Part shown: positions 8,576 to 53,484 of the stretch, one piece after another
Numbering within the stretch: the stretch's first letter is position 1
Layout of the letters: each line of letters begins with the position of its first letter
NCBI GenBank assembly: GCA_964516945.1
Contig: CAZFAL010000002.1
Span: forward strand, 1-53,488
Source of the DNA: an uncultured Ignavibacteriales bacterium
GTDB taxonomy: Bacteria; Zixibacteria; MSB-5A5; GN15; JACZUZ01
Direction: 5' to 3'
Length of the DNA stretch: 53,488 nt
Translations under genes and position numbers: made by a program
The notes under the pieces: generated by a model
Database searches by the model: none
The model's input: the letters and a program-made list of their open reading frames with translations, nothing else
Told to the model about the DNA's origin: nothing

Positions 8576-8646
8576 TAGACTGATATCGATTGAAGAACTG
8601 TGCTTGAACATGGTGACTCAACAGCGCTTTTCAAGACTGCCTTCCG

Positions 8647-19098: not shown

Positions 19099-20223
19099 CT
19101 ACTCCGCCGGCGCAAACACCGCGTATGCGTCCAATCCGTAATTCTTTGTAATCCGATGCGCCTGTTCGTCGTTTTCGGTTAAGACAATCAAATCATCCCA
19201 GAGCGGCGATAAATCAAGATCGCCGTAAGAGCGCCACTCTTTTTCTCTTTTCCAATCTGTTCTCTCAGCGCCCGCTGCATGGGCAAATAATCTCTCAGCG
19301 TCCGATAGCTGTGAGAGTTCCTCTGTCCCAAGATAGGTGACCTGCTGAATTCCTGATTGTTCGGCGATCCCCGACGGCAGTGCGATTGCGTATGGCTCGA
19401 TTGTCATTTCACGATAGCGGGCGCGATACTTCATCAGAGATATCGATTCGGCAAGCGACGCCGAAGTCAGCGAGACCATGGCGGCCCCCTGCGGCATATG
19501 TCGTGATGAGCCACGGATGCGTTTTTCAGTGAGGATGCGCTCAAGTGTCGCCAGCGCGGAACGGGGATAGGTATGTTCCGAATCACAGATGGCGCGATAG
19601 TATTCGCACCGCCGTTCTCCCGGCCAGGGGCCGTTAGTTGCGCGCGTCCAGTGGATCAAATAGTTCTCAAGACGACTTGCCGTTGTCGTAAGCGGTTGTC
19701 GTTCGACAAAAGACTGTTTTATTCTCGTATGGCTCTTCTGATAGGGAACGCGAAAGCGATTATCGATCTTGCCTGACAACGACGCTGAGTCCGCCAATTG
19801 TATGTCCCAGAACCCTCCCGGACGAATCGAGACCGGAACAACAATATCAGCCCGGCGCAAAACCTCTGCGTCACGAAGATGCGGCGCTTGCTTTGCAGAT
19901 TCTTCCCCTGTCTCAACGCATGTAAATGACATTCGCTCTGAGGGAAGGTTGAATTCGTCAGCCAGAATGTTGCGTAGGTCTTCTTCTGAATTCGCCACGG
20001 CCTGTAACTGGCCGGTTGTCAGAATAATTTCAATATGAGACTTCGTGCGGCATATTTCGTAAAGGGCCAGCTCATAGGTTGTTTCGCCGAGTGATGCAAG
20101 AAATCTGTAGTTGCTCTCTGCGCTCAGGGCGTCTACAGCGCGTAACGTGGCCTGAATCCATTTGTCCCGCCCCGTAGGACGGAGCGCTTGCCGGGAGTTG
20201 ATTAGCGCGACACGTTGCATCAC
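19099..20223 (-). CDS. Hypothetical two-domain protein: SLOG/DprA-like N-terminus fused to an AbiGi-like C-terminus (tentative)
   Basis: 374-aa ORF lying 21 nt downstream of mntH on the same strand. The N-terminus (VALINSRQ..., FLASLGETTYELAL, ADIVVPVSIRPGG) recalls the DprA/LOG Rossmann pattern. The C-terminus (YLIHWTRA..GPWPGE ... VSLTS ... IEPYAIAL) recalls the AbiGi-type pattern. By-eye only. Confidence 0.6.
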   Translation of the reverse strand: MMQRVALINSRQALRPTGRDKWIQATLRAVDALSAESNYRFLASLGETTYELALYEICRTKSHIEIILTTGQLQAVANSEEDLRNILADEFNLPSERMSFTCVETGEESAKQAPHLRDAEVLRRADIVVPVSIRPGGFWDIQLADSASLSGKIDNRFRVPYQKSHTRIKQSFVERQPLTTTASRLENYLIHWTRATNGPWPGERRCEYYRAICDSEHTYPRSALATLERILTEKRIRGSSRHMPQGAAMVSLTSASLAESISLMKYRARYREMTIEPYAIALPSGIAEQSGIQQVTYLGTEELSQLSDAERLFAHAAGAERTDWKREKEWRSYGDLDLSPLWDDLIVLTENDEQAHRITKNYGLDAYAVFAPAE

Positions 20224-40021: not shown

Positions 40022-42664
40022 CTAGTTGGCGCTTGCGGTTGCCTTGTTCTTGTAAATTAAATCATAAACATGGCTGTGGCTCTGAATGACTCGTGCGCCA
40101 TCTACATAGAGAAACGATGTGTTTTCGACCAGATAGGGTGTTTGAACATTCTGCATTGTCAATCCGCTGATGTTCACCCTCGCTCCGCCGAATTCAGATT
40201 TTTTTTGGTAGACCGCAATGCCGGTCTCGCAACCGACCGCTTTCATCCTCTTGATTGTAGCTTCAGAAAGGTCTTTACCGGCAAGCGCTATTTTTGCGCC
40301 GCGCACAGAAAGATCTGTAATTGTCGCCACACTTCCCTCACCGAGACTCACTCCTTTATCAGCGGCGCCCCGGATAGTCACTTGTGATATATCCAGTCGA
40401 CTTCCGGAAACATCAACCGCGTCATTTCCTGAATTGATAAATGTGCAGTCCTCCAATGAGCCGTCGCTGAAGTCAGTGTCCAGCGCATCGGAGTAGGCGC
40501 CTTCAAACACAGTTCCGGTGATAGCGTAATCGGAGTGGACAATGTTGAGCGCATCCTCGGAGTGACAATTACGGAACAGCGAATTGCGAATCTCTACCGG
40601 TGAATTGTAGAATGTCACACTGCCGGAGAGGGCCCAGCCGACTTTTTGTGGATTTGTCAGAGATACAAAGTGGACATATTCAAGAATCGAAGCGCCGGAG
40701 CTGTTGAGAACAACCAGGCCCTGACCGGAGTCAGCGCTGATAAGAATTGGACGCTCACTGTCGCCTCGGAACGCCAGTGGAGAATGAGAAATAACAGCGG
40801 CGTTATTCGTAAGCGTCAGCTTGACATCCGGCGGGCAAATGAACAGATACCCCGCCGGGACTATCATGTCGTGGTCTATTACCCATTCGCCGGGTTTGAT
40901 TATGATTTGCTTGCGCGATGTATCAACATCAATGAACGGAAACTGACCGAGATTCGACTCTCTGCGCATGATGTCATCGACAAACAAGCTTGAATCAATC
41001 CGCCTCCAGTTATGAACTTCATCCGACAATGTTGTATCTATGCCCGGCAGGTGGAAATGAATACGGATATCAGGCCTGCTCTCAGACAATGTGTCGTCCG
41101 GTTGGCTGACAGCGCTGTCCGGGTAAGCTACGAAAGTGACATTCTGATATGACAGTGGTTGGGGCAGATGACGCCCCGGTATCAAAAAAGCGCCCCCTGC
41201 AGGCATATATGGTTTGCCGTCAACAGTAATGCCGGTCACAATCACCGGCAGTTGTTGCACATTGGCGATTTCCAATTCGCATCGCCGCTTTCGCAGGGAA
41301 ACGTTGTTTGCCATTACATACTTAACCGGATTGAGGAATCGTCGGATAAATTTCTGATTTGTATGCAATACTTCTGGGGAGAACCGAAACTGAGGATACG
41401 TACTAAAGATGGCGCTCAGGTTGTCTTCTAATTCCGGCTGAATGTCGTTCCAGAAATCTGTCACATACTGCGGATCTGCGAAGCGATGTAATGTTGCGAG
41501 GTATTTCCCGTAGAACGCCGAATCCTGAAATAACTGGCTGAGGAAAATCTGCCGTATCTGCCCGGTCCAGGGATACTCCCGTTCTTTTTGGTACAAGCTG
41601 GCCAGCGTAATTGTCGGATGTCCGGCGTCATTGTCGTAGGGTATCGGCTCAAGTCTTGATGTGATAGGGTTGTAGTAAAAGCGCAATTGAATTGTCAACT
41701 GTCCGTGTTGTGCGCCGAATAAATCTGAAAGCGCCAAAAATCTCGCCAACTGGTCAGTGTCAAACACATCGGAAGTCGGAAGTTCACCGTCACGAAAACG
41801 CTCCAGAAGACTTGTCGCGATTCGATACTGAGCAAAAAGCGTCGAATCATTCCTTGTTTTGTTTGTTTGAAACATGTCGAATGGCAGGGAATAATAATGT
41901 CCGGCGCCGGGACGGGCGTGCTCGGTCTCACGCTTGTCTGTGTCCCGCTCTGTCCACCATGATGTTTCGTCAAACTTGACAATCGGCGCCTCACGACGGC
42001 CATTATGCTCAACGAGTCTTTTTTCAAAGCTTTCTTCAATCGCATAAACGCCCATGTCCACACCATTGAGAGACACATCAACGAACTTGTACCGCAGGGC
42101 TATCAGACCCTCGCGCCTGACGGCCTCCAGGTAGATCCACTCCCAGACATGATTGCGAACTTTTGGATGTTGCAGGGAAAAGCGCTTCATGCCGAACAAT
42201 GTGCTGTCGTCACGAACTTTGACACGCAATGACCATTTGTCAGTGTCGAGGTGATCGATGTCATCACCTTTGAGACGTAGTTTGACGCTCAGGTCTTTGT
42301 CCTGATAGCGGATTCGACCCTTCACCCAACTGTCTTTGGTAGTGATGATTCTGCCGATACGCAACGCCTCCTGCCGTTTGGCAGAAAGTTGTTGGAACTC
42401 CTTAAAGGGTATATCAAGCGATATACGTTCAGCGTGCGAGAAAAATCCTTTGATGAAATGCTTCGGTAAATCTGTGTTGCTTAAAATTTTTGTGTAGACA
42501 AGTTGTAGAACTTTGAAGCGCTGGTACGAAGCGCCGGCGAGAAAGACTATCACTATTGCGAATATGACAAAAAGGATTCTGAAAGACAGTCTGCTACGGA
42601 TGTTCTTCAGCGTTGCGGATACTGCCTGCGAAGCCCGGCGGTTCACCGAACCTTTTATCAGCAT
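40022..42664 (-). CDS. CotH-family (atypical kinase fold) protein with N-terminal TM anchor and C-terminal right-handed beta-helix-like region
   Basis: I prefer the ATG at 42664, 2 nt after the DUF4956 stop, which avoids a 77-nt overlap. CotH-like core (FGMKRFSLQHPKVRNHVWEWIYLEAVRREGLIALRYKFVDVSLNGVDMGVYAIEE). The C-terminal ~300 aa have repetitive beta-helix-like segments. Confidence 0.75.
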   Translation of the reverse strand: MLIKGSVNRRASQAVSATLKNIRSRLSFRILFVIFAIVIVFLAGASYQRFKVLQLVYTKILSNTDLPKHFIKGFFSHAERISLDIPFKEFQQLSAKRQEALRIGRIITTKDSWVKGRIRYQDKDLSVKLRLKGDDIDHLDTDKWSLRVKVRDDSTLFGMKRFSLQHPKVRNHVWEWIYLEAVRREGLIALRYKFVDVSLNGVDMGVYAIEESFEKRLVEHNGRREAPIVKFDETSWWTERDTDKRETEHARPGAGHYYSLPFDMFQTNKTRNDSTLFAQYRIATSLLERFRDGELPTSDVFDTDQLARFLALSDLFGAQHGQLTIQLRFYYNPITSRLEPIPYDNDAGHPTITLASLYQKEREYPWTGQIRQIFLSQLFQDSAFYGKYLATLHRFADPQYVTDFWNDIQPELEDNLSAIFSTYPQFRFSPEVLHTNQKFIRRFLNPVKYVMANNVSLRKRRCELEIANVQQLPVIVTGITVDGKPYMPAGGAFLIPGRHLPQPLSYQNVTFVAYPDSAVSQPDDTLSESRPDIRIHFHLPGIDTTLSDEVHNWRRIDSSLFVDDIMRRESNLGQFPFIDVDTSRKQIIIKPGEWVIDHDMIVPAGYLFICPPDVKLTLTNNAAVISHSPLAFRGDSERPILISADSGQGLVVLNSSGASILEYVHFVSLTNPQKVGWALSGSVTFYNSPVEIRNSLFRNCHSEDALNIVHSDYAITGTVFEGAYSDALDTDFSDGSLEDCTFINSGNDAVDVSGSRLDISQVTIRGAADKGVSLGEGSVATITDLSVRGAKIALAGKDLSEATIKRMKAVGCETGIAVYQKKSEFGGARVNISGLTMQNVQTPYLVENTSFLYVDGARVIQSHSHVYDLIYKNKATASAN

Positions 42665-42665
42665 G

Positions 42666-43349
42666 TTATACAACTCCCTTATTGTCGAGGAATGTGATAC
42701 GGATGCGGGAGCTGAGTTCGTTGAGCGAGTTGCGACCGGCATTCAGCTGAGCAAAGTCTGAGAACTCCACCAGAAACGAAGCTTCAAGCGCATTGTCTGT
42801 TTCATCAAACCGTCTGAGGTTGACCATTGATGCAGTGGCGGAGAGTGTGTCCACAATTTTATCAAGGGACACCTGTTCATCTTTGGGTACACTGACAGAC
42901 AGATTGTAATTGTGCGTGATGCGTTTTGCGCGGGTGCGGTTCTTAACGATGAGCGCAACAGCTATCATGACAAACGCCAGCAGTGTTATCAACTGCTGAT
43001 TAGCTCCCAATCCGAGACCGATTGCGATTGAAAGAAACAAATATGACAACTCTTCCGGTTCTTTAATCGCGGCGCGAAAGCGCACGATAGACAGCGCGCC
43101 GACCAGACCCAGCGACAGAGCCAGGGATGACTTGACAATCGTGATTATCACCATCGTTGTCATTGTCAGTAGCACAAAGTTTTCGGCAAAAAGAGACCTG
43201 TTTGACAATGAACGGCCATAGCGAACATACATGCGGCTGAGGATATAACTCAATACTCCGGCCAGAGCCAGATTGATAATAAACGGCGCAAGTTCAACAG
43301 GAATGTTACTACTTGAAAGGAATTCTTGAAAAGAGCGAAATTTATTCAT
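42666..43349 (-). CDS. DUF4956-family membrane protein
   Basis: LSLGLVGALSIVRFRAAIKEPEELSYLFLSIAIGLGLGA is the characteristic motif. First gene of the DUF4956-CotH-VTC operon. Confidence 0.75.
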   Translation of the reverse strand: MNKFRSFQEFLSSSNIPVELAPFIINLALAGVLSYILSRMYVRYGRSLSNRSLFAENFVLLTMTTMVIITIVKSSLALSLGLVGALSIVRFRAAIKEPEELSYLFLSIAIGLGLGANQQLITLLAFVMIAVALIVKNRTRAKRITHNYNLSVSVPKDEQVSLDKIVDTLSATASMVNLRRFDETDNALEASFLVEFSDFAQLNAGRNSLNELSSRIRITFLDNKGVV

Positions 43350-43414: not shown

Positions 43415-43560
43415 TGAGGGCGCCGAGTGAGTCAGCCGGTTATTGAAATCGCTCTCTTTGGAGAGCGGCAACATCCGCAAAAAAACTACGGACTCGAAAG
43501 CGCCAAATCAACCAATAAACACGCTTCGGCAAAAAACCATTTCAAAGGGAATCCGACCCC

Positions 43561-43598
43561 AAAAAAGAAACTCCCGAACTTGTTACACCTTGGGAGTT
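43561..43598 (-). terminator. Rho-independent terminator, homologous to the one after tRNA-fMet
   Basis: Minus strand: aactccc / gggagtt 7-bp stem followed by a T-run (plus-strand aaaaaag). Shares a 20-nt identical block (ccaaaaaagaaactcccgaa) with 53362-53381. Confidence 0.7.
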
Positions 43599-43604
43599 AA
43601 ATCT

Positions 43605-43640
43605 TGGTAGGGGGGATTTGAACCCCCGACCCTTGAGGCT
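43605..43640 (-). pseudogene. Degenerate copy of the 3' end of tRNA-fMet (T-arm plus truncated acceptor plus CCA)
   Basis: The minus strand reads ..agggtcgggggttcaaatcccccctacca. This is identical to the T-arm of the intact tRNA at 53408-53484, but the acceptor 3' strand is shortened (6 C + ta versus 9 C + gcta). No matching 5' half was found. Confidence 0.65.
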
Positions 43641-44200
43641 TGTTGCTTAACCTTTGATTGTTGTGTCGGGTCTTGATTTTCGCAGAGCGAAAATTGTGAC
43701 CCGACACGTCACCCCGGTGCAAGGGGCTTGTTGAATAAACCCATGTACGTCACTTGCGAGGAGTCCGGCGACAGCCGGACGACGTGGCAATCTCCCGGCT
43801 ATGAATCGACGGGATTGCCGCGCTATCGCTCCCAATGACTGCAATAAATGACTTTTTCAATAAGCCCCAGGCGTCAGGTCACACGACAGCAAAAAACGCT
43901 GTCGCAAGACCTGCCGCAACTCGAGAAGACTTCTTCAACAAGCCCCTTGGGTCATCCCTGTTCATTGTATTCAACACGGGGTAATCCGTAAACGTCGACA
44001 GGTATGACTCTCTGATCTTACCCCGGTAAGACGGATATGTTAAGAAGACGGGACCTGCTGACTGAACGCCTGGTTTCCCGGATACGACGGACTCAACAAC
44101 AAAACACTTGCGTGTTTTCTGAGTCTCGCCGCCGTTAGTTGAGCGATGGTCTACAAGTCGGATTCCGGATACGTGTGGCGGCAATGATTCGGAAGTAAGT
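43641..44200 (-). ncRNA. Candidate large structured RNA or structured non-coding region of unknown class
   Basis: No convincing ORF. Nested perfect hairpin (43663-43672 / 43698-43707 enclosing attttcgc-aga-gcgaaaat). Hairpins at 43763-43780, 43884-43904 and 44090-44125 (the last has a GCAA tetraloop when read on the minus strand). 16-bp long-range complement 43720-43735 / 43934-43949. Strand and boundaries are uncertain. Confidence 0.4.
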
Positions 44201-44398
44201 TGGTGATTCCTTGTTGTTGAGTAGTGAACTATGTCTCATACGGAGACTGCAACAGTCCGGTAGTCCGAATCGAATCATTAAGGCGTATGTATCCTGTTGT
44301 TATGCAGGCAGTTATGGGATAGCGCGCCGGTTAATGGACGTCGAGCAAAAAAAATGGAGCATTCGAGCAATTATTTTGATTTTCCGGTCAATTAATCC

Positions 44399-44427
44399 TT
44401 GACATTGGCGACCTGGTTATCGATAAT
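44399..44427 (+). promoter_or_regulatory. Near-consensus sigma70-type promoter candidate for the cytochrome/oxidoreductase operon
   Basis: TTGACA (44399-44404), 17-nt spacer, GATAAT (44422-44427), about 135 nt upstream of the ATG at 44561. Confidence 0.45.
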
Positions 44428-44560
44428 CGTGGAGTGGGCTAGGCTAGGTGTCCGCGGTGAGGTTTATCATGAAGAGTTGAGAATCTCACTCGCGTACTTT
44501 CTACTATTGAGGTTTTGGTTCCTGAGAAGGAATGAATGGTTTCTTCTTAGCATGTAACTA

Positions 44561-45055
44561 ATGGTTGGATTAAAAGTGGACAAAGTAACTCACTACTTGC
44601 ATGCAACAGCGTTGAGTCTTTTTGCGATAGTACTCGGCGCCTGCAATTCAGGGCCGGCGGCGTCGAATATTGATTTGAGCGCCAAGGCAGATTCGGTTTC
44701 GGCGTCACTCGCGCAGAATCCGGTTGTCCAAAGAGGGTACGAGGTCTATCGCTCGCATGGATGCATTCTTTGCCATGGCCTCAATGGAGAGAAGGGGCGA
44801 AAGAACAGCAATGCAAAAACCGGTGACGCGACGCCGGCGCTAACCTATATCGCTGAAGGATATACAAAGAAAGAGTTTCAGAAAAAAGTACTCACAGGTG
44901 TTAAAACAATTCAACGAAAGGATACAACAGGCCAGGCGCCTCCCTGGCGGATGCCGGGCTGGCGGGGTGTCATCAGCAAATCGGAATTGGAAGATCTGAC
45001 CGCCTATGTTTGGCAGCTTTTGCCGCCGGATACAGGTGGTGACGACGATTGGTAG
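44561..45055 (+). CDS. Mono-haem class I c-type cytochrome, lipoprotein
   Basis: Lipobox-like FAIVLGAC. One CxxCH (CILCH). Distal Met candidate in WRMPGW. Confidence 0.8.
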   Translation: MVGLKVDKVTHYLHATALSLFAIVLGACNSGPAASNIDLSAKADSVSASLAQNPVVQRGYEVYRSHGCILCHGLNGEKGRKNSNAKTGDATPALTYIAEGYTKKEFQKKVLTGVKTIQRKDTTGQAPPWRMPGWRGVISKSELEDLTAYVWQLLPPDTGGDDDW

Positions 45056-45142
45056 GATGTAAAGCTACAAAACCGTAACAGGAGCTGTCAGCGAAAGCTG
45101 ATGTGAGGAACACGATTCAAAAAAAAGTGGAGGGTGGCTCGT

Positions 45143-46198
45143 ATGAAGTCAAAACTGCTAACAGCGTTAATCCTAAGTTGTACGCTCACGGGATTGGGAA
45201 ACTCAACCGCACACGCACAAACAGACAAGTTTGTGCTTGGTGGTTACATGGACTGGACGTACACGGTGTACGAGGCCGGACGCATGCCATCGACCTTTGA
45301 TGCGTTTCACTTCAATCCAATTTTCATCTATCAGATGGAAGACAACTTGATGGCTTCGTCAGAGATTGAATTCGAACATGCAGGAGATGAAATCAATGTT
45401 GAGTATGCACAGATTGACTATCTGTGGAATGATTATGTGACATTCACCGTAGGTAAGTTTCTGGTTCCCTTTGGCGCCTTCAACCGGCGCTTACACCCGA
45501 GTTGGGTAAACCGCGTTCCCGGTAAGCCGCTTTCAAACGAGCATGTCGTCCCGACAGACTGGAGTGAAATCGGTATCATGGCCTCCGGCGCTGTTGGCTT
45601 TGGTGAGAATGGTGGCCGTGTGAATTATGCATTCTATGTCGGCAATGGTTTGGAGGGGCCGGTTGGCTCAGACATTCGTGACCTGCGCCATGAAAAAGAC
45701 CCCCGCGAGATGAACAATGACAACAAAGCCGTCGGCGGACGCCTTGGTGTTGTGCCTGCAGCCGGTGTGGAGTTTGGCGTATCCGGGTACACAGACAAAT
45801 ACGATGATGTAGCTAATCCGGTCTTGAATCTGAACATGATTGGCTTTGACGCGGAGTTCCATCACGAGGATTATTTTGAGCTTCGCGGAGAATACAACCA
45901 AGCGAAAATAGACACGGCCGTTGGCAAGTCCGAGACGAGGAGTGGTTTCTACGCACAGGCCGCGCTAAAGCTCAGTGTCACTGACGAGGACATTCTGATG
46001 CCGGTGGAGTTGGCAGTGCGTTTTTCCGGTCAAAACTTCCCGGGTGAAATGAATGACATCTATGAAGTAACACCGACCGTAAACTACTATTTCGGAAGCA
46101 CATCTGTACTACGTCTCGGTTTTAGAATGAACGGTGAAAAAACAGGATACAAGACGGCCAACAATCAGTTCACCGCCTTGTTCTCCAAGGGGTTCTAA
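45143..46198 (+). CDS. Outer-membrane beta-barrel porin (possibly phosphate-selective porin O/P-like)
   Basis: The ORF opens with GTG at 45134. The ATG at 45143 lies 8 nt after ggaggg. Signal peptide ..LTGLGNSTAHA. Alternating beta-strand pattern. C-terminal ..LFSKGF. Confidence 0.7.
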   Translation: MKSKLLTALILSCTLTGLGNSTAHAQTDKFVLGGYMDWTYTVYEAGRMPSTFDAFHFNPIFIYQMEDNLMASSEIEFEHAGDEINVEYAQIDYLWNDYVTFTVGKFLVPFGAFNRRLHPSWVNRVPGKPLSNEHVVPTDWSEIGIMASGAVGFGENGGRVNYAFYVGNGLEGPVGSDIRDLRHEKDPREMNNDNKAVGGRLGVVPAAGVEFGVSGYTDKYDDVANPVLNLNMIGFDAEFHHEDYFELRGEYNQAKIDTAVGKSETRSGFYAQAALKLSVTDEDILMPVELAVRFSGQNFPGEMNDIYEVTPTVNYYFGSTSVLRLGFRMNGEKTGYKTANNQFTALFSKGF

Positions 46199-46261
46199 GA
46201 GCAGGACGCTACATAAACGAGTCCACACATAAGACAATGTATTGTTAGGAAGGTATGACAT

Positions 46262-46534
46262 ATGAAATTCACAAGAACATCATTCGGTAAGGTCCTGATA
46301 GGAGCGATAGTGGCAGTGTCATTTGTCGGCGTCACAACCGCGTTCTCCGGTCAAATGGACGGCGCGAAGGTCTTCAGGGACAACTGCACAAAGTGTCACA
46401 ACGAACGTAGTCCGATGGAAAAAACAGATAAGGAATGGCGTGTAGCGATTACGCATATGCGCACAATTGCGCAGTTGACCGCCAAGGAGTCACGCGCCGT
46501 TCTGAAATATCTGCAAGCTAATAACAAAGACTGA
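46262..46534 (+). CDS. Small secreted mono-haem (CxxCH) protein, paralogue 1
   Basis: Signal peptide, then CTKCHNERSP...EWRVAITHMR...AVLKYL. Same architecture as the next ORF. Confidence 0.7.
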   Translation: MKFTRTSFGKVLIGAIVAVSFVGVTTAFSGQMDGAKVFRDNCTKCHNERSPMEKTDKEWRVAITHMRTIAQLTAKESRAVLKYLQANNKD

Positions 46535-46570
46535 TTGACGCTGGAAGAACTATAGAAAGGATGGCCCCCG

Positions 46571-47005
46571 ATGCGACTACTGTCTCGTATTACACTTGTT
46601 TTGTTTATCTCGGCGATAGGAGCAAATCTCTTTGCGGAGAATGACAAGGATACAGCTGTTGATGAAGCGTTGCAGGATTCGTTGCGGCTCGCCGCGCTGG
46701 ACAGTGGTGTTGACACTATTGATGTTTCACATTATCCCGAGGAAATGCAACAATACTATGAGGTGTTGAAAGTCAAGTGCACGCAGTGTCACAAGCTTTC
46801 TCGTGTCATTAACTCGAGCTTTGCTCTCCCGGATGAGTGGAAACGGTATGTCAAGCGCATGCGTCGCAAACCGGGGTCCAAGATTAAGAAGAAGGACGCT
46901 AAGAGGATCTATAAGTTTCTTGTCTACGACTCTCAACAACGCAAGGCTGACTTAATCAAAGAGAAAACAGCTCTGGCGGAAAAAGAAGCGAACAAGAAGA
47001 AGTAG
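46571..47005 (+). CDS. Small secreted mono-haem (CxxCH) protein with Lys-rich tail, paralogue 2
   Basis: Signal peptide, then CTQCHKLSRV...EWKRYVKRMR...RIYKFL and a K-rich C-terminus. Confidence 0.7.
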   Translation: MRLLSRITLVLFISAIGANLFAENDKDTAVDEALQDSLRLAALDSGVDTIDVSHYPEEMQQYYEVLKVKCTQCHKLSRVINSSFALPDEWKRYVKRMRRKPGSKIKKKDAKRIYKFLVYDSQQRKADLIKEKTALAEKEANKKK

Positions 47006-47023
47006 AACTATAAGAGATTGAGC

Positions 47024-47560
47024 ATGGCTGAAACGACTGACAATGTGCAAGAGCGTCCGGCAAGACGCAACGGTTTACGGTTCCTGATTTATTCTGTTCT
47101 CGGGTTACTGGCGGGATTCTGGGGATATCGGGCTGTTGAGGCGTTGCAGTTAACACAGCCCTACAAGTTCAATCACGCAGCTCACTATCCAATGAATTGT
47201 GTTATTTGTCATAGCGGCGCCCGGAGTGAAGTCCACTCCGGGTTGCCGCCTTTTTCTACCTGCATGAAGTGCCATGCGACATCACCGTTGAAAGATAAAG
47301 CATCCCTGAGTGTGTGGCAGGAGGCGGAGAAGTCCGGCGCTCTTCGTTGGCGAAAACTCACTTCAACTCCAAATCATGTCTATTTTTCACATCGGCGCCA
47401 TACAGAGTTTGCAAAATTGGACTGTCAGACGTGTCATGGTGATATGCCGACACGAACATCACCACCTATGCTACCAATGAAGCGTGTCAGTATGAAGGCC
47501 TGTCGGGATTGTCATCGAAAAAATAACCAAACAACTGATTGCGCGCATTGTCATCGTTGA
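47024..47560 (+). CDS. Membrane-anchored penta-haem c-type cytochrome (ActA/QrcA/NrfB-like)
   Basis: N-terminal TM helix (LRFLIYSVLGLLAGFWGY). Five CxxCH motifs (CVICH, CMKCH, CQTCH, CRDCH, CAHCH) in ~180 aa. The ORF opens with TTG at 47018 and the ATG is at 47024. Confidence 0.85.
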   Translation: MAETTDNVQERPARRNGLRFLIYSVLGLLAGFWGYRAVEALQLTQPYKFNHAAHYPMNCVICHSGARSEVHSGLPPFSTCMKCHATSPLKDKASLSVWQEAEKSGALRWRKLTSTPNHVYFSHRRHTEFAKLDCQTCHGDMPTRTSPPMLPMKRVSMKACRDCHRKNNQTTDCAHCHR

Positions 47561-47590
47561 ACGAGAAGTGTTTCGCGCGCTAAGGCAACT

Positions 47591-49939
47591 ATGAATATCA
47601 CACGTAGAGACTTTCTGGCTTTCACCGGCTTCACACTGGTCGGAACACTGGGTGGCTGGTATTTCAAGAACCAGATTCTCCCATACGAGGACTACTATCT
47701 GGGTTCGGATTTCCGCATGCGTAAGGAAACATTTCGCACCGGTGTGTGTGGTATGTGTCCGGCGGGATGTGGTATCCGGGTGCGGTTGGTGGACGGTGTT
47801 CCGGTGCGAATTATGGGGAACCGGAACTGTCCAATTGGTGAAGGTGGTTTGTGTCCCCGTGGTCTGATGGGACTGGAGTTGCATTTCAATCCTGACCGGC
47901 TAGCCGGTCCGCTTGAGCGCTCAGGCCAGGGAGACGCTGCGCAATGGAAGTCAATTACATGGGATGAAGGTCTGAAAAAACTACGCGAAAAAGTCATAGC
48001 GGCCCAAGTATCTCAAAAAGAGTTATCCCAAAAAGGATTATCTCAAAAAGGATCTGTCCCAATCATGGCTCTCTGCCCTGATGAGCGTAGTGTACGGACC
48101 GAGTTGCTCGCACGAGCGCTGGAAAAGCTTGGCTCCGCCAATGGGCTTATTCCAGTCAACTCACAGAGAGACAATGCGACACGGAAGTCTCTTCAGCGAA
48201 TGTGCGGCTATACTGATTGGCCGGTTTATGATGTAGAGCGCTCGGACGTACTGATTGTCTTTGACACACCCCTCTTTAGTGGCTGGGGAAATTCAACTTC
48301 CATGGCCAGAATGTACGGTGATTTCCGTCGCGGACAGGACCGTCGCGGTCATATGATATTTGTCGGTAGCCGTCGCGGGCAGGAAGGCCGAGTGGCTGAT
48401 GAATACATAGAAGTCAAGCCGTATACCTCGGCAATTCTCGCATTAGGTTTAGTTCATGTGCTTCTTAGGGAAGGACTCTATGATAGTAGCTTTGTGAAGG
48501 AGCATTGTGCGGGATTCGCCGATTTCCGTGATGTCGCGCTGGCAAAATACACAACTGACTATGTCAGCGCTCAAACAGGTGTCCCGATAGAAACAATCAA
48601 CATGCTGGCGCGACGGATTGCCGCGAGTGAGCGACCGTTGGCTCTTGGAGAGCGCCGCCCGCAAGATTCCCACGTTGCCGAACAAATGGCCTATGTTGCC
48701 CTCAATGCAATACTTGGGAGTATCGGTGTGCGTGGCGGACTGGTTTTGCAGGAAAACCTGCGACTTAACACTGTGAGAAAAGCAAAATCAACTGTCACAG
48801 ACGATTCAAACTCAAAAAGTCTGATTGCCGCGACAGTGAATGAGGTCTTGCATAACAAAAACCTGGCGCCCAAAGTGTTGCTCATCGACAGAGTGAATTG
48901 CGGTTTGCTATCCACCACTGTCCCAGGTTGGGACGAGTTCATGCAACAGATTCCGTTTGTTGTAAGTTTTTCAGCGTATCCGGATGCAGGAGCGCAATTG
49001 GCGGATATGGTCCTTCCTGATGTGGATTTTTTGGAGAAGGCGCAAGACATAACAGGCGCCCCGTCGATTGAGAGCCCTTCGTTTGGTGTGACAGAACCGG
49101 TAGTCGAACCTCTCACAGACGGTAAAGACACGAATCATGTTCTGATGAACTTCTTGAGTGATGAGTTCCTCAAGACCGGGGTTGTTTCATGGGGCGACGC
49201 TGAAAAGGAAACTCGCAAACTGCGAGATGAATTGCATCGTGAATTGTTTGCGTTGAAACGCGGTTTAGTTTTTGACACAAAAATAACACGAGACTGGATG
49301 GAGAATATGGAATCCGGTGGGTGGTGGTCCTCGGATCTTAAGGATTTTGACTCGTTCGAGAGTCAACTGAATGAGAAAGGTGGCTGGACAGATCCATTCG
49401 TTCCTATTTCAGCGAGAAGAAAACGGGCATTGGGGACAGGACGACAGATAGATTTGCAACCACTGACAAAAGAGTTATCGGTAAATTCACTGGAGCGCGA
49501 GACACCGGCGCCAAGTGTCAATGGAACCAGTGTCAATGGAAAATGGAGCCAGCTACGCGCTATCCCGATATCGGCGCTGGCTCTATCGGGGCTTCCGTAT
49601 GGCAATGTCCCGCATCTGCTGGAATTCGCTGAACCCGGACTAATCTACGGTTGGTCGCCGTGGCTTGAGTTGCATCCTGACCTCGCCGCGCAACTCAAAG
49701 TTGCAGAAGATGACATGCTTGAATTGCAGACAGCAGGCGGAGTCCGCACATGCCGCGTTGTGATAAACAATACATTGCATCCGGATGTAGGCGCAATACC
49801 GCTTGAGATGTTCGGACTCGGTAACGGCAAATGGGTGCGCGAGAATATGCGGAAGCCGCTTGTACAAACCACAAACGATACACAGACAGTGAATGGCTCG
49901 TCGACAACAGGAATAGCGCTCAAAGTGCGAAAGGTGTAA
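47591..49939 (+). CDS. Tat-exported molybdopterin-oxidoreductase-family (MopB/CISM) large subunit
   Basis: Twin-arginine signal (TRRDFLAF). N-terminal FS0-type Cys motif CGMCPAGC...NCPIGEGGLCPRG. 782 aa. Contains an in-frame repeat-derived insertion (SQKELSQKGLSQKG). Confidence 0.85.
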   Translation: MNITRRDFLAFTGFTLVGTLGGWYFKNQILPYEDYYLGSDFRMRKETFRTGVCGMCPAGCGIRVRLVDGVPVRIMGNRNCPIGEGGLCPRGLMGLELHFNPDRLAGPLERSGQGDAAQWKSITWDEGLKKLREKVIAAQVSQKELSQKGLSQKGSVPIMALCPDERSVRTELLARALEKLGSANGLIPVNSQRDNATRKSLQRMCGYTDWPVYDVERSDVLIVFDTPLFSGWGNSTSMARMYGDFRRGQDRRGHMIFVGSRRGQEGRVADEYIEVKPYTSAILALGLVHVLLREGLYDSSFVKEHCAGFADFRDVALAKYTTDYVSAQTGVPIETINMLARRIAASERPLALGERRPQDSHVAEQMAYVALNAILGSIGVRGGLVLQENLRLNTVRKAKSTVTDDSNSKSLIAATVNEVLHNKNLAPKVLLIDRVNCGLLSTTVPGWDEFMQQIPFVVSFSAYPDAGAQLADMVLPDVDFLEKAQDITGAPSIESPSFGVTEPVVEPLTDGKDTNHVLMNFLSDEFLKTGVVSWGDAEKETRKLRDELHRELFALKRGLVFDTKITRDWMENMESGGWWSSDLKDFDSFESQLNEKGGWTDPFVPISARRKRALGTGRQIDLQPLTKELSVNSLERETPAPSVNGTSVNGKWSQLRAIPISALALSGLPYGNVPHLLEFAEPGLIYGWSPWLELHPDLAAQLKVAEDDMLELQTAGGVRTCRVVINNTLHPDVGAIPLEMFGLGNGKWVRENMRKPLVQTTNDTQTVNGSSTTGIALKVRKV
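48009..48053 (+). repeat. In-frame 3 x 15-nt tandem repeat inside the MopB-family CDS
   Basis: tatctcaaaaagagt / tatcccaaaaaggat / tatctcaaaaaggat. A second in-frame 2 x 15-nt repeat (agtgtcaatgga..) lies at 49514-49543. Confidence 0.9.
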
Positions 49940-50625
49940 TGCGTATGCCACGTTGGGGAATGGTAATAGATCTGGACAGATGTATTGGCTGTCAGGCCTG
50001 TACACAGGCGTGCGCTCAGGAGAACAATATCCCGTTTGGAGATTTCGAACAGTCCAAATTGCGCAGAAGTATTTCCTGGATTCAAGTGATGCCTATGGGT
50101 GAGGAGCGTGACTCGATAGAGCAGACAATGACACCGCTACTGTGTCAGCATTGTGACTCGCCACCCTGCACCCGGGTATGCCCGGTATCTGCAACTTACA
50201 AGAACAATGAGGGGATTGTCGCCCAAATCTACCCGCGTTGCATTGGTTGTCGCTATTGCGCCAATGCCTGTCCATACACGGTGAAGTACTTCAACTGGTT
50301 TGGTCCAAAATGGCCGGAAGAGATGGAGCAGTTACACAATCCGGATGTTTCTGTGCGCCCGGTCGGTGTCATTGAAAAATGCACGTTTTGCCATCACCGA
50401 CTGATTATTGCCAGAGAAAACGCTCGAGTTGAGGGGCGAAAGCTTGAAGAAGGTGATTTTTTGCCGGCGTGCGCTGAAAGTTGTCCAACCAAAGCGTTTA
50501 CGTTCGGTGATCTGGATAATCCGTCATCAGATGTCTCAAAAGCCGCAAGTGATTCGCGGGCCTATCAATTAATGGGGGACTTGGGGACGAAACCGAAAGT
50601 GCGTTACTTGAGAGCGATAGAATAA
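49939..50625 (+). CDS. Four-cluster [4Fe-4S] ferredoxin-type subunit (PsrB/NrfC/QrcC/ActB2-like)
   Basis: Start ATG overlaps the upstream TAA (TAATG). Cys motifs CIGCQACTQAC, CQHCDSPPCTRVCP, CIGCRYCANACP and CTFCHH...CAESCP. Confidence 0.85.
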   Translation: MRMPRWGMVIDLDRCIGCQACTQACAQENNIPFGDFEQSKLRRSISWIQVMPMGEERDSIEQTMTPLLCQHCDSPPCTRVCPVSATYKNNEGIVAQIYPRCIGCRYCANACPYTVKYFNWFGPKWPEEMEQLHNPDVSVRPVGVIEKCTFCHHRLIIARENARVEGRKLEEGDFLPACAESCPTKAFTFGDLDNPSSDVSKAASDSRAYQLMGDLGTKPKVRYLRAIE

Positions 50626-51986
50626 TGAATACGAACGCGCCAACTCCTGAATTTGATGATAAGCGTCTTCTTGAGCCGCTTCAGACAACCGGCAAAGAGT
50701 TTCGTATAGCGGTGACAGCGTTGCTTGCTGTTGTCGGCTGGGCGGCATTCTCCTGGGTCTGGCAGGTCAGTCATGGCCTGGGGATGACGGGTCTGAATCG
50801 CTCAGTGTTCTGGGGTATCTATATCACCAACTTCGTCTTCTTTATCGGTGTCTCTCATGCCGGTACGTTGATTTCCGCTATTCTGCGTATGACAAATGCC
50901 GAATGGCGACGCCCTATCACCCGTATGGCTGAAGTTATCACTGTTGCGGTGCTTTTCTTTGGAATAGCGAATGTGTTCTTCGATCTTGGCCGACCGGACA
51001 GAATTCTGAATATCGCTCTTCACCCCCATTTTACTTCACCGTTGATTTGGGACATTTGTAGTGTGACGCTCTATCTGATGGGAAGTTCATTTTATTTGTT
51101 TATTCCGCTGATACCGGACATTTATCTTCTCAAAGACCGCATAGGTGGCTGGCGCGGAAGGCTGTATCGCTGGATAGTTCGCATACTTCATTGGGATGAC
51201 TCCGAGCGGCAACGTATCAAACTCGAACGTATCATCACTATTGCGGCGCTAATTATTCTCCCTATTGCAGTGTCCGTCCACACCGTGGTCTCCTGGGTGT
51301 TTGCCATGACCGTGCAACCAATGTGGCATTCGTCCATCTTCGGACCATTCTTTGTTGTCGGGGCGATATTCTCCGGCATCGGCGCATTGTTGACCGCGAT
51401 GATTCTGTTTCGCAAGTTCCTCGGCTTGGAAAAATATCTCCTGCCGATTCATTTCAAACAGCTTGCCTCACTGCTCGTAGTAATGAGTGTCCTCTGGCTC
51501 TATTTTACGCTCAACGAATACCTGACGACATTCTATGGTAATGAGCCGAGAGAAATGTCAGTGTTTGCCTCAAAGTTCACCGGACACTTTGCCTATATGT
51601 TTTGGGGGATGGTCTTAACGTGTTTTGTCATCCCGTTTGGATTGCTATTCAAGAAGAAAAACAGAACTATCCGTCGCATATTCATCGCTTCAATAAGTGT
51701 AAACATCGGTATGTGGTTAGAGCGCTACACAATTGTTGTGCCGTCTCTCTCCCACACTCGTCTACCATACCCCATTGGCGCCTACACTCCATCCTGGGTT
51801 GAGCTTTCTTTGATGGCCGGGTGTTTCGCCGGTTTCGCGTTGCTGTATATGTCATTTTCAAAAGTGTTTCCAATTGTCTCGATTTGGGAAATGAAGGAAG
51901 GGCTGGAAAGTTCCGTGTCCATTATCTCTCGCCGCTTCATGTCGTACTTTGGAATTAGCTCAAAAGAAACGAAAGATTTACCATGA
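50625..51986 (+). CDS. NrfD/PsrC-family integral membrane quinone-interacting subunit (ActC/QrcD-like size)
   Basis: Start overlaps the upstream stop (TAATG). 453 aa, with about 10 hydrophobic helices. Confidence 0.8.
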   Translation: MNTNAPTPEFDDKRLLEPLQTTGKEFRIAVTALLAVVGWAAFSWVWQVSHGLGMTGLNRSVFWGIYITNFVFFIGVSHAGTLISAILRMTNAEWRRPITRMAEVITVAVLFFGIANVFFDLGRPDRILNIALHPHFTSPLIWDICSVTLYLMGSSFYLFIPLIPDIYLLKDRIGGWRGRLYRWIVRILHWDDSERQRIKLERIITIAALIILPIAVSVHTVVSWVFAMTVQPMWHSSIFGPFFVVGAIFSGIGALLTAMILFRKFLGLEKYLLPIHFKQLASLLVVMSVLWLYFTLNEYLTTFYGNEPREMSVFASKFTGHFAYMFWGMVLTCFVIPFGLLFKKKNRTIRRIFIASISVNIGMWLERYTIVVPSLSHTRLPYPIGAYTPSWVELSLMAGCFAGFALLYMSFSKVFPIVSIWEMKEGLESSVSIISRRFMSYFGISSKETKDLP

Positions 51987-53131
51987 ACTCGCAACGGATT
52001 GTCACAGGGGCGTTCATCGCAATACTCTTGACTGTTTCACTGGTAGGAGCGTCCGAAAAGCTCGGCCACATTGCCACCCCAATCAATGCGGTGAAGACGT
52101 TTGAAGCAAAACGCTGTGTGCGTTGTCACCTGATTGATGTCAGTTGGGAGGCGTATGGTCCGGATTTGGCGCGCGCATCATTGAGCGGCAACTTTTCGGA
52201 TATTGTCGGACGGATGTGGAACAAGGCGCCGGTGATGCTCAAGAAGATGAATGAGCTTGGCATTGAGTTTCCGACCATGCAGGCTGATGATTTGATTCGT
52301 GTCGCTTCCTTTGTCGGGGTGTATCAGAATATGCTCAGCAATTACACAAAAGACGCCGACATTGAACACGGCGCTACACTGTTTCACCGAACTAAGTGTG
52401 CAACGTGTCATGACAGTAAACGTATGCAGGGTTCGTTTGAATCCCCCATGTTGGCGCTTGTGGCTATGTGGAAGCATCAACAAAGCATGCGCGCAAAGAG
52501 TCCTCGGGCGCATGTGAAGTGGAATAACTTTACCGAGAGCGACGTGAAAGACCTGTTGGGATTTCTGACCGATGATGAATCTCAGGACAAAGGTCGGACT
52601 GCGCCACAGTTCTTGAAACCCGGCGACGCACAATTAGGCAAACAAAGTTTTGTGAAACTGAACTGCGGCTCATGCCATGATGGCGCAGGGGTGTCTAAGC
52701 ACAAGCCCGGCGGTTCGGAAGTCGTTGCAAGCAACGGACGTCTCGAAATAGGAAGTGTTATGGCCGCGCTCTGGAATCATAGCTCGCAGATGTGGCGCAA
52801 CTCAAATATGAGGCCGACCTTCACTGCGCAAACCCTGGCAGACCTTACTGCCTATTGGTATTCCGAAAGATTCGAACATTGCAATGACGACACAACCTCG
52901 GGTGAATCGCTCTTCGAGACAAAATCATGCGCTTCCTGCCATGAAATTGGCTCGGCCGACTTCACAATCCCTGATAATAAAGATGAACTTTTAGCGCAAA
53001 TGTGGAGCCATGTGCCGGATATGGTTGAAGAATGCACTGACAACGATATCAGTTGGCCACATATGCAACCGGGGGAGCTGTCGGCGATAGCGGAATATCT
53101 CATCGTTAGCGGCCGACAAAACTCACAATAG
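51983..53131 (+). CDS. Tetra-haem c-type cytochrome built from four tandem class-I-like domains
   Basis: ATGA start/stop overlap. N-terminal anchor or signal. Four CxxCH motifs (CVRCH, CATCH, CGSCH, CASCH), each followed by a [ML]W-x-[HK]...M motif (MWNKAPVM, MWKHQQSM, LWNHSSQM, MWSHVPDM). Confidence 0.85.
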   Translation: MNSQRIVTGAFIAILLTVSLVGASEKLGHIATPINAVKTFEAKRCVRCHLIDVSWEAYGPDLARASLSGNFSDIVGRMWNKAPVMLKKMNELGIEFPTMQADDLIRVASFVGVYQNMLSNYTKDADIEHGATLFHRTKCATCHDSKRMQGSFESPMLALVAMWKHQQSMRAKSPRAHVKWNNFTESDVKDLLGFLTDDESQDKGRTAPQFLKPGDAQLGKQSFVKLNCGSCHDGAGVSKHKPGGSEVVASNGRLEIGSVMAALWNHSSQMWRNSNMRPTFTAQTLADLTAYWYSERFEHCNDDTTSGESLFETKSCASCHEIGSADFTIPDNKDELLAQMWSHVPDMVEECTDNDISWPHMQPGELSAIAEYLIVSGRQNSQ

Positions 53132-53365
53132 TAGAGCTCTCAATCCCTTCCCTTTTCCGGGGAACTCCGGGTAAGCGTTTTGCGAATCGATTTGTAGCAG
53201 GGCGCTTACCCTTTTTCCTCTTAAAGCCCCCATAATAGTCATTTCAGGTTGATATTCGATTCGTATCGGAATGACGCCGGATTGCGCCTCGATGACGCTG
53301 TCTTCAATGCTGACGTTAGAGAATCCAATTTCGAAAGACAGTTTCTCCAAAAAACGTCCCACCAA
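53123..53365 (-). CDS. Hypothetical small protein (doubtful)
   Basis: 80-aa GTG-initiated ORF between the tRNA terminator and the convergent operon end. No recognisable motif. Confidence 0.25.
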   Translation of the reverse strand: MVGRFLEKLSFEIGFSNVSIEDSVIEAQSGVIPIRIEYQPEMTIMGALRGKRVSALLQIDSQNAYPEFPGKGKGLRALLL

Positions 53366-53401
53366 AAAAGAAACTCCCGAAGTCTTTCAACCTCAGGAGT
53401 T
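53364..53401 (-). terminator. Rho-independent terminator of tRNA-fMet
   Basis: Minus strand: aactcc / ggagtt stem followed by a T-run (plus-strand aaaaaag). Confidence 0.7.
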
Positions 53402-53407
53402 CAATCT

Positions 53408-53484
<77 letters not shown>

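Follow-up and report, generated by a model that had tools for sequence, protein, structure and literature searches.

Two nested miniature inverted-repeat elements in a tRNA-Met scar as the probable source of a strongly folding, ORF-free stretch upstream of a cytochrome operon

What is a stretch of several hundred nucleotides that folds strongly, contains no credible open reading frame (ORF) and ends in something like a tRNA? The question is raised by a gap of 1.2 kb between a DUF4956 gene and a plus-strand cytochrome operon in an uncultured Ignavibacteriales bacterium (placed in the Zixibacteria by GTDB), within a stretch of 53,488 nt on contig CAZFAL010000002.1 that is referred to here as the window. 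The original prediction for this gap was one large minus-strand non-coding RNA with a T-arm at its end and, as a fallback, a decayed element end, i.e. an attachment or recombination region. The present analysis lends the RNA no support and comes close to the fallback. The segment 43636-43945 very probably consists of two nested, non-coding transposable elements of the miniature inverted-repeat kind (MITEs), called E1 and E2 below, which lie in the scar of a tRNA-Met gene and are followed by a neutral spacer. MITEs are short (<500 bp) and non-coding (PMC10969869).

The individual features from which a large RNA had been proposed are all present, either where they had been placed or 1-2 nt away. 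The nested hairpin (43663-43707) has an outer stem of 10 bp, an inner stem of 8 bp and a loop of 3 nt; both 7-bp hairpins occur (43763-80 and 43884-904), as do the cggggtaa/ttaccccg pairing (43977-84/44018-25) and the bipartite hairpin at 44090-44125. The long-range complement is longer than had been claimed, spanning 19 nt (43720-38/43931-49) with 95% complementarity. The recurring motif is found in three exact copies of GGGGCTTRTTGAA, one on the plus strand (43723) and two on the minus strand (43856-68 and 43934-46), with none elsewhere in the 53-kb window. A T-arm/CCA remnant (43605-43635, minus strand) and, after it, an intrinsic terminator are likewise real, and there is no credible coding sequence, ORFs and six-frame pieces being without a match in Pfam, PHROG or NCBIfam even at E<=10. 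The strength of the fold is also not in doubt: compared with dinucleotide shuffles, 43606-44200 gives z = -6.8 on the minus strand and -7.8 on the plus strand. It is, however, unevenly distributed. The segment 43636-43949 has a z of -7.96, while the single-copy segment 43950-44360 has values of -0.34 and -0.46, and the fold excess arises entirely within 43636-43949. With z near 0 in the spacer, the 8-bp pairing (43977/44018) and the hairpin at 44090-44125 are no more than would be expected by chance.

The folding part of the stretch can be divided into two elements. E1 (43636-43945) is a MITE of ~162 nt that is split by E2, making 310 nt in total. Its termini are AGGCTTGTTGC... and ...TTCAACAAGCCC, its ends begin GGGCTTGTTG..., and it holds two hairpins, M1 (43663-43707) and M3 (43875-43913). 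E2 (43724-43867) is a MITE of 144 nt within E1, with the termini GGGCTTGTTGAATAAA... and ...TTTTTCAATAAGCCC. The terminal repeat of E1 is 19 nt long and 95% complementary to its right end, while the terminal inverted repeat (TIR) of E2 reads GGGGCTTGTTGAATAAA against the reverse complement GGGGCTTATTGAAAAAG. In MITEs, TIRs measure about 4-30 bp. The long hairpin folding of both elements results from these terminal repeats and from internal inverted repeats.

Evidence for the repetitive nature of E1 and E2 comes from Logan contigs of four metagenome runs (X1-X4) containing this organism, which were aligned to the region. Contig depth in the flanking genes and the spacer is 2.5-10, compared with 150-350 at 43660-43719, 170-740 at 43765-43824 and 180-610 at 43885-43914. 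In the four runs, 43660-43945 stands at 25-90x the flank depth, E2 reaching ~70-90x. Matching contigs, at 80-99% identity, number 96-156 per run in X1-X3 and 17 in X4; in X1-X3 roughly half match over only a part of their length, and 16-27% of the aligned contig sequence continues into unrelated sequence. Many contigs join 43707-43727 straight to 43869-43877, omitting 148-163 nt. The commonest joint omits exactly 148 nt, which equals E2 (144 nt) plus one target-site duplication (TSD, 4 nt), the form expected of an empty site. These direct joints between M1 and M3 indicate that the outer modules are normally adjacent, and that the module between them is an insertion.

The limits of the elements are defined by copies at other loci. 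When JGI metagenome contigs were scanned for a pattern from the middle module, 15 loci were obtained. Eight contigs of one metagenome, Ga0114931, carry E2 copies that align to the window from GGGGCTTGTTGA(T/A)AAACCCC to TTCAACAAGCCCC (also given as GGGGCTTGTTGA to TCAACAAGCCCC); nothing aligns outside these points, and the flanks are unrelated. Common termini combined with unrelated flanks identify E2 as a discrete element of 139-144 nt with TIRs of ~17 nt. For E1, the informative copy is in a relative. Three relatives (L097, L098 and L099) were found via homologues of the first protein of the operon, with 66-79% protein identity (74% for L097 and 66% for L098), and a fourth contig, L100, is conspecific and 98% identical overall to the window. 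L097 carries an intact E1 without E2 (L097:3150-3311, 162 nt), flanked on one side by a 258-aa ORF and on the other by a PhoU gene; the L097 operon is 3 kb away, and the locus differs from that in the window. In this copy M1 and M3 are contiguous and ~79% identical to those of the window, and the termini are GGGGCTTGTTGATAAA and TTAATCAACAAGCCCC. Both elements are multi-copy and dispersed, and E2 is nested within E1.

The ends of the elements were taken as GGGCTTG...CAAGCCC, and the 4-mers immediately beyond them were compared. A perfect 4-bp TSD is present in five of six independent complete insertions. E1 is flanked by CTTG/CTTG in the window and L100 and by CACG/CACG in L097; E2 is flanked by TATA/TATA in L084, GTGT/GTGT in L091 and CAAG/CAAG in L100. 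The flanks of E2 in the window are CAAG (43720-23) and CAGG (43868-71), with a single G-for-A difference at 43870. In the same comparison the copy in L086 is one base off, and that in L087 has a degenerate end. TSDs are a hallmark of cut-or-copy transposition by a DDE enzyme, and taken together with the size, the lack of coding capacity and the copy number, they place E1 and E2 within the definition of a MITE (PMC10969869).

The termini shared by E1 and E2, GGGGCTTGTTGA(A/T)AAA, are close to the inverted repeat of IS903, an insertion sequence (IS) of the IS5 family. Of the outermost 17 nt, GGCTTGTTGAATAAA, 16 positions are shared with the IS903 inverted repeat GGCTTTGTTGAATAAA when one indel is allowed. 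The IS903 repeat, GGCTTTGTTGAATAAATC, was confirmed to lie next to an annotated IS5-family transposase. Of 5,426 E. coli genomes, 1,941 contain a 32-mer, GGCTTTGTTGAATAAATCGAAC..., which is located 46 nt upstream of a gene annotated as an IS5-family transposase and has a perfect inverted copy 1,057 nt away. E1 and E2 resemble IS903 and the IS5 family in this 17-nt terminus, but differ in being without a transposase gene and in having a 4-bp TSD. IS903 makes 9-bp duplications, and several subgroups of the IS5 family make 4-bp ones (ISfinder classification). Due to this mismatch, the termini are called IS5-family-like and IS903 is not claimed as the partner. As no transposase ORF is found in or near E1 and E2, they are regarded as derivatives of the IS5 family rather than as members, and would have been mobilised in trans by an IS5-family DDE transposase.

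The DNA into which E1 was inserted derives from a tRNA gene. An intact tRNA-Met(CAT) gene at 53408-53484 (minus strand), just past the operon end, is the sole tRNA gene in the window (ARAGORN; Rfam tRNA, 64.8 bits), and together with its terminator (53362-53407) it occupies 53362-53484. On the minus strand, from 43635 to ~43557, the sequence is an 84-100% copy of part of this region (~80 nt), and the two form a direct repeat. The copy comprises a 3' remnant of tRNA-Met(CAT) at 43605-43635, with the variable region, the T-arm, an acceptor strand shortened by a 5-nt deletion, and CCA, followed by an intrinsic terminator (43557-43604) that is a paralogue of the one at 53362-53407. The direct repeat D1 (43559-43615/53362-53418) is 84% identical, and its alignment spans both the hairpin and the T-run, with differences in the terminator stem that preserve pairing; 43610-31 is a perfect 22-nt repeat of 53418-39. 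The left TSD of E1, CTTG (43632-43635), forms the last 4 nt of the remnant. The right TSD, also CTTG (43946-43949), begins a short segment (43946-43955, minus strand) in which the remaining 6 nt (43950-55) continue the remnant, reading ATGACC against the ATAACC of the tRNA's anticodon loop and stem. When E1 and one CTTG (43636-43949) are excised, the resulting sequence ATGACCCAAGGGTCGGGGG, compared with ATAACCCGAAGGTCGGGGG in the tRNA, aligns to tRNA-Met without gaps from the anticodon loop onwards, and the score rises from 107 to 115. This means that the copy starts in the anticodon loop and that E1 was inserted into it. Beyond these 6 nt, no tRNA 5' half is present on the far side of E1. In the order of events proposed here, E1 would first have inserted into the dead 3' fragment of the tRNA-Met gene, and E2 would have inserted into E1 afterwards. 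Read from its sequence, the intact tRNA-Met(CAT) looks initiator-like: three consecutive G-C pairs close its anticodon stem, and C1:U72 is a mismatch. The fallback of a decayed attachment or recombination region is broadly right: a partial duplicate of tRNA-Met that resembles an attachment-site (att) scar does exist, but the dense structure comes from MITEs inserted into it and not from recombinase-binding sites.

The rest of the gap consists of a single-copy, non-coding spacer (43956-44354), in which depth equals that of the flanking genes and which holds the 8-bp pairing and the hairpin at 44090-44125. No similarity to it was found in L097, L098 or L099. Compared with L100 it is 4.9% divergent, the highest value of all segments, with 4.1% for E2, 1.4% for the promoter and 5' untranslated region, and 0-2.2% for coding sequences. 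The one substitution in the 8-bp pairing (44021 C>T) is uncompensated. The spacer is unconstrained DNA. Conservation in the relatives is restricted to the promoter block of the operon at 44355-44429 (plus strand), which is 77-86% identical in L097, L098 and L099 and contains TTGACA-17-GATAAT at 44399-44427, matching 11 of 12 consensus positions; nothing else upstream is conserved. A decayed integrase or other pseudogene in 43950-44400 was considered and rejected, as there is no match in Pfam, PHROG or NCBIfam, nor did tblastn reveal any resemblance to the small ORFs carried by L097 and L098. Within the spacer, 44022-44252 shows no difference from L100 over 231 nt, while the neighbouring segments differ by ~5%. 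The coding sequence of the cytochrome c gene is likewise identical to that of L100, and the next gene has 13 differences. This pattern probably reflects a recombination mosaic rather than constraint.

E1 and E2 share many properties with described prokaryotic MITEs such as Correia/NEMIS, QMITE2 of Coxiella and MITEAba12, including a length below 500 bp, lack of coding capacity, TIRs of 15-20 nt, short TSDs, many dispersed intergenic copies, strongly folding transcripts or single-stranded DNA (ssDNA), and insertion of one copy into another. They differ in that E2 carries a palindrome as cargo that is also found alone in other phyla, and in that neither element matched Rfam, PLSDB or IMG/VR. E1, E2 and the palindrome were not found in PLSDB plasmids or in phage and IMG/VR viral contigs, the ORFs of E1 and E2 (both <500 bp) had no protein-family match, and a literature search by sequence string returned unrelated primers only.

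Two further differences from the known MITEs are among the points that weigh against the assignment. As to the partner transposase, no autonomous IS with these termini was found in the window or the fetched loci, no tblastn match was obtained for the IS903 transposase, and, given the 9-bp duplications of IS903 against the 4-bp TSD seen here, the partner would have to belong to another subgroup of the IS5 family. The elements are also ~50% GC, and not AT-rich as typical MITEs are (PMC10969869). In addition, the 53-kb window contains no further copy of E1 or E2, and the copy number applies to the community and not to a single genome. The retention of base pairs in E1, described below with the reading it favours, counts in the same direction. 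The nested-MITE interpretation is nevertheless preferred, and E1 and E2 appear to be without a cellular function.

A more far-reaching possibility concerns the core of E2, which is a 91-nt palindrome (43749-43839) that includes the hairpin at 43763-80. It is a degenerate copy of a family with the form GTCATTGCGAG..CGTGGCAATCTC-loop-GAGATTGCC..CTCGCAATGAC, the consensus of which can also be read as GTCATTGCGAG...GGCAATCTC...GAGATTGCC...CTCGCAATGAC. Members are found in at least 8 JGI metagenomes and in 2 metagenome-assembled genomes (MAGs) of different phyla (Gammaproteobacteria and Anaerolineales), at L081-L095, L015:1279-1540 and L047:5671. The palindrome occurs alone in unrelated metagenomes and phyla, in some cases as arrays, its arms often have mini-hairpins of the GCGAAGC type, and the family has no Rfam match. 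Tandem arrays of whole and half palindromes, with units of 63, 124 and 178 nt, are present at L088:7600-8910 and 13277-13520 and at L089:1-1981; in L088 a gene for a GIY-YIG nuclease (104 aa, 8059-8373) lies between two palindrome arrays, a single case. The E2 core might represent an undescribed class of mobile hairpin, or a structured RNA, that hitch-hikes in an IS5-type MITE. We consider this unlikely, as we do the separate idea that the operon is a cis-mobilisable, integrase-less island.

Another proposal, for which the chances are distinctly low, is that E1 and E2 are mobile elements that also act as RNA or DNA-hairpin modules, e.g. as multi-copy small RNAs (sRNAs), attenuators, mRNA stabilisers or protein-binding sites. 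At this locus they would insulate the DUF4956-CotH operon from read-through, or modulate the divergent cytochrome promoter. The hairpins of the two E1 copies, which are 79% identical, keep all 42 of 42 predicted pairs, with three compensatory double changes, and the spacers between the hairpins are scrambled. Such pair retention hints at selection on the fold, either as ssDNA or as RNA, but palindromes at transposon ends may also be kept by transposase recognition or hairpin-templated repair, and the covariation count is drawn from just two E1 sequences. The E2 core has a conserved, strand-specific T.G wobble, with more G.U pairs (27 vs 16) and a slightly lower energy on one strand, and MITE transcripts that form stable stem-loops and yield sRNAs are documented (PMC10969869). 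The E2 core in the window is degenerate, however: one arm carries an insertion and the other a substitution. The divergence of E2 between conspecifics (4.1%) is about that of the neutral spacer. The pairing of E1 and the wobble of E2, seen in two to thirteen sequences, could reflect the needs of a transposase or of an ssDNA hairpin, or else an RNA role.

It is very unlikely that the elements are of the repetitive extragenic palindromic (REP) or REPIN type, which would have been moved as ssDNA hairpins by a RAYT, an HUH tyrosine transposase, rather than by a DDE enzyme. A REPIN consists of two short inverted REPs and is associated with a RAYT (PMC3337134). The inner palindrome of E2 is similar in being multi-copy, extragenic and hairpin-forming, and the tandem and alternating arrays of the E2 core in L088 and L089 resemble REP clusters or BIMEs (PMC2817692, PMC3337134). 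Mini-hairpins of the GCGAAGC type in its arms are frequent as well. On the other hand, E1 and E2 have IS5-like TIRs and 4-bp TSDs, which are hallmarks of DDE enzymes. TIRs and TSDs are atypical of IS200/RAYT-type insertion. No Y1 or RAYT gene was seen near any copy, including the operon region of the window and the arrays of L088, and the elements exceed the 20-40 bp of REPs (PMC3733652). The palindrome, at 80-135 nt, is conserved across phyla instead of being species-specific, and in this lineage it moves inside an element with TIRs and TSDs. A REP/RAYT origin could apply to the inner palindrome alone.

The large RNA itself would be a single structured molecule of ~400-600 nt on the minus strand, ending in a T-arm, CCA and terminator in the manner of tmRNA or an ornate RNA, and is by now scarcely credible. 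The locus does resemble tmRNA, ROOL, GOLLD, HEARO, OLE and raiA in having several hundred ORF-free nucleotides with a strong predicted fold near tRNA-like sequence. Folding energy is very low over the whole stretch (z -6.8), the minus strand does have a genuine T-arm, CCA and terminator at its 3' end, and there are two weak minus-strand promoter-like sites (44043 and 43992), although their count is within chance. In contrast to the known RNAs, the fold in the window is explained by transposon inverted repeats, it matches no covariance model and it is unconserved. Rfam 15 at gathering thresholds detects the tRNA only in the window, with nothing from the families for tmRNA, RNase P, ROOL, GOLLD, HEARO, OLE or raiA, and at E<=10 the matches are limited to look-alikes of animal microRNA hairpins and a match of the T-arm to tmRNA at 16.9 bits (threshold 47). 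A permissive Rfam scan of 16 loci, which together contain ~30 copies of E1, E2 and the inner palindrome, was likewise negative. ARAGORN finds no tmRNA, and there is neither a tag ORF nor a 5' acceptor half; a tmRNA or other tRNA-like RNA was rejected, the T-arm being all that ARAGORN and Rfam recognise. That T-arm belongs to a truncated copy of tRNA-Met without a 5' half and with 5 nt deleted from the acceptor strand. The structure splits into two mobile elements that occur separately elsewhere, and the non-repeat part is folded at chance level, unconserved and the fastest-evolving. Four metatranscriptomes from the source samples had no contig on the region or on any paralogue, but are tiny (0.4-15 Mb of contigs) and uninformative. 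Non-conservation in relatives and a match to the termini of mobile elements, both of which the original prediction had itself named as evidence against an RNA, are what was found.

Next to no credence is given to the idea that the GGGGCTTGTTGAA motifs are arm-type sites of an island recombinase beside an att site, and the region an attachment region: although the motif occurs four times, in both orientations, no more than 320 nt from the tRNA-derived repeat, the element bounded by each motif pair recurs at other places, with unrelated flanks and far from any tRNA repeat, target duplications flank the motifs, the ORFs between the repeats include no recombinase gene, and the same operon in relatives has no such motifs upstream. 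An integron attC site was rejected, as the GTTGAA/TTCAAC boxes are wrongly ordered (R'-like before R''-like, on both strands) and lie inside longer transposon-type termini, and a CRISPR or tandem array was rejected as there are no regularly spaced direct repeats.

A separate question is how the tRNA repeat arose. The remnant (43557-43635 with 43950-55) and the intact tRNA-Met (53362-53444) are direct repeats 9.8 kb apart that bracket the whole operon. In L098, the operon has the same orientation; an intact tRNA-Ser(CGA) lies on one side of it, and on the other are 17 nt that repeat the T-loop-to-acceptor end of this tRNA perfectly and are followed by a terminator (positions 8638-8654 and 19512-19599). 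The neighbours of the operon vary, being DUF4956/CotH in the window, PhoU and a Na-Pi cotransporter in L097, and PNP_UDP and tRNA-Ser in L098. As in tRNA-targeted islands, one end has an intact tRNA and the other a 3' fragment, which starts in the anticodon loop in the window and in the T-loop in L098. Such an arrangement, at these two sublocations, is a classical mark of integration into tRNA genes. On balance we lean towards the tRNA repeat being the att scar of an old, integrase-less, tRNA-targeted island, in which case the direct repeat would be of integrase-mediated origin.

Several observations count against this island. None of the nine ORFs between the repeats encodes an integrase (they are cytochromes, a porin-like protein and Mo-pterin, FeS and NrfD subunits), the repeat, unusually, runs on into the terminator, and the base composition equals that of the flanks. 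In these respects, and in having no excisionase, it differs from tRNA-targeted islands. No recombinase gene was seen in L098 or in the window, no integrase is present at the L097 operon, no empty site was found among the relatives, and the island ends of the window and L098 have no similarity beyond the operon and its promoter. Where an island integrase would be expected in L098, with the tRNA-Ser remnant on one side and the operon promoter on the other, there is an orphan ORF of 96 aa (L098:9054-9344). Its identification as an integrase N-terminus was unsupported, Pfam, PHROGs, NCBIfam and PDB giving no meaningful match, and a search of 5.8 billion proteins returned only itself. The operon may be an integrase-less, cis-mobilisable respiratory island that landed in two different tRNA genes. 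The conclusion that E1 and E2 are MITEs is unaffected by how this is decided.

The operon (44561-53131, plus strand, starting at 44561 or 44576) encodes, in order, a c-type cytochrome, a porin-like protein, more cytochromes, a molybdopterin-type subunit, an FeS subunit, an NrfD subunit and a dihaem cytochrome, and is an ACIII-like respiratory module. For its first product, an identical public protein begins at GTG 44576 (159 aa) and not at ATG 44561 (164 aa), so that the true start is uncertain. On the other side of the gap, the DUF4956 gene (42666-43349, minus strand) is the first of a DUF4956-CotH pair, and the CotH-kinase/beta-helix protein (906 aa; region 40022-43349) overlaps its end. Homologues of the DUF4956 protein have at most 61% identity and come from many phyla, with no close relative in the set of species-representative genomes. 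A contig scan for synteny via this neighbour gave matches of <=61% identity in many phyla, none of them syntenic, and a tRNA-Met beside a DUF4956-type gene was seen in 0 of 40 loci scanned. Near-identical sequence is confined to metagenomes from microbial mats, hydrothermal vents and the subsurface.

The locus is ordinary selfish DNA, an example of a well-known kind and not a new large RNA. It carries a caution for the search for such RNAs: nested MITEs provide hundreds of ORF-free and extremely well-folding nucleotides that mimic an ornate RNA, and a tRNA scar riddled with transposons can pass convincingly for a "tRNA-like 3' end". MITEs and RNA are quickly told apart by multi-copy depth, element termini and target duplications. 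When the source communities are assembled from short reads, the assemblies break at the MITEs (contigs of X1 and X2 end at 43559 and 43901), and loci like this one will often be absent from MAGs or split in them. Hydrothermal-vent and mat communities are rich in both MITE families, the presence or absence of E1 and E2 could serve as a strain marker, and the tRNA-flanked position of the operon hints at how electron-transport modules move between lineages.

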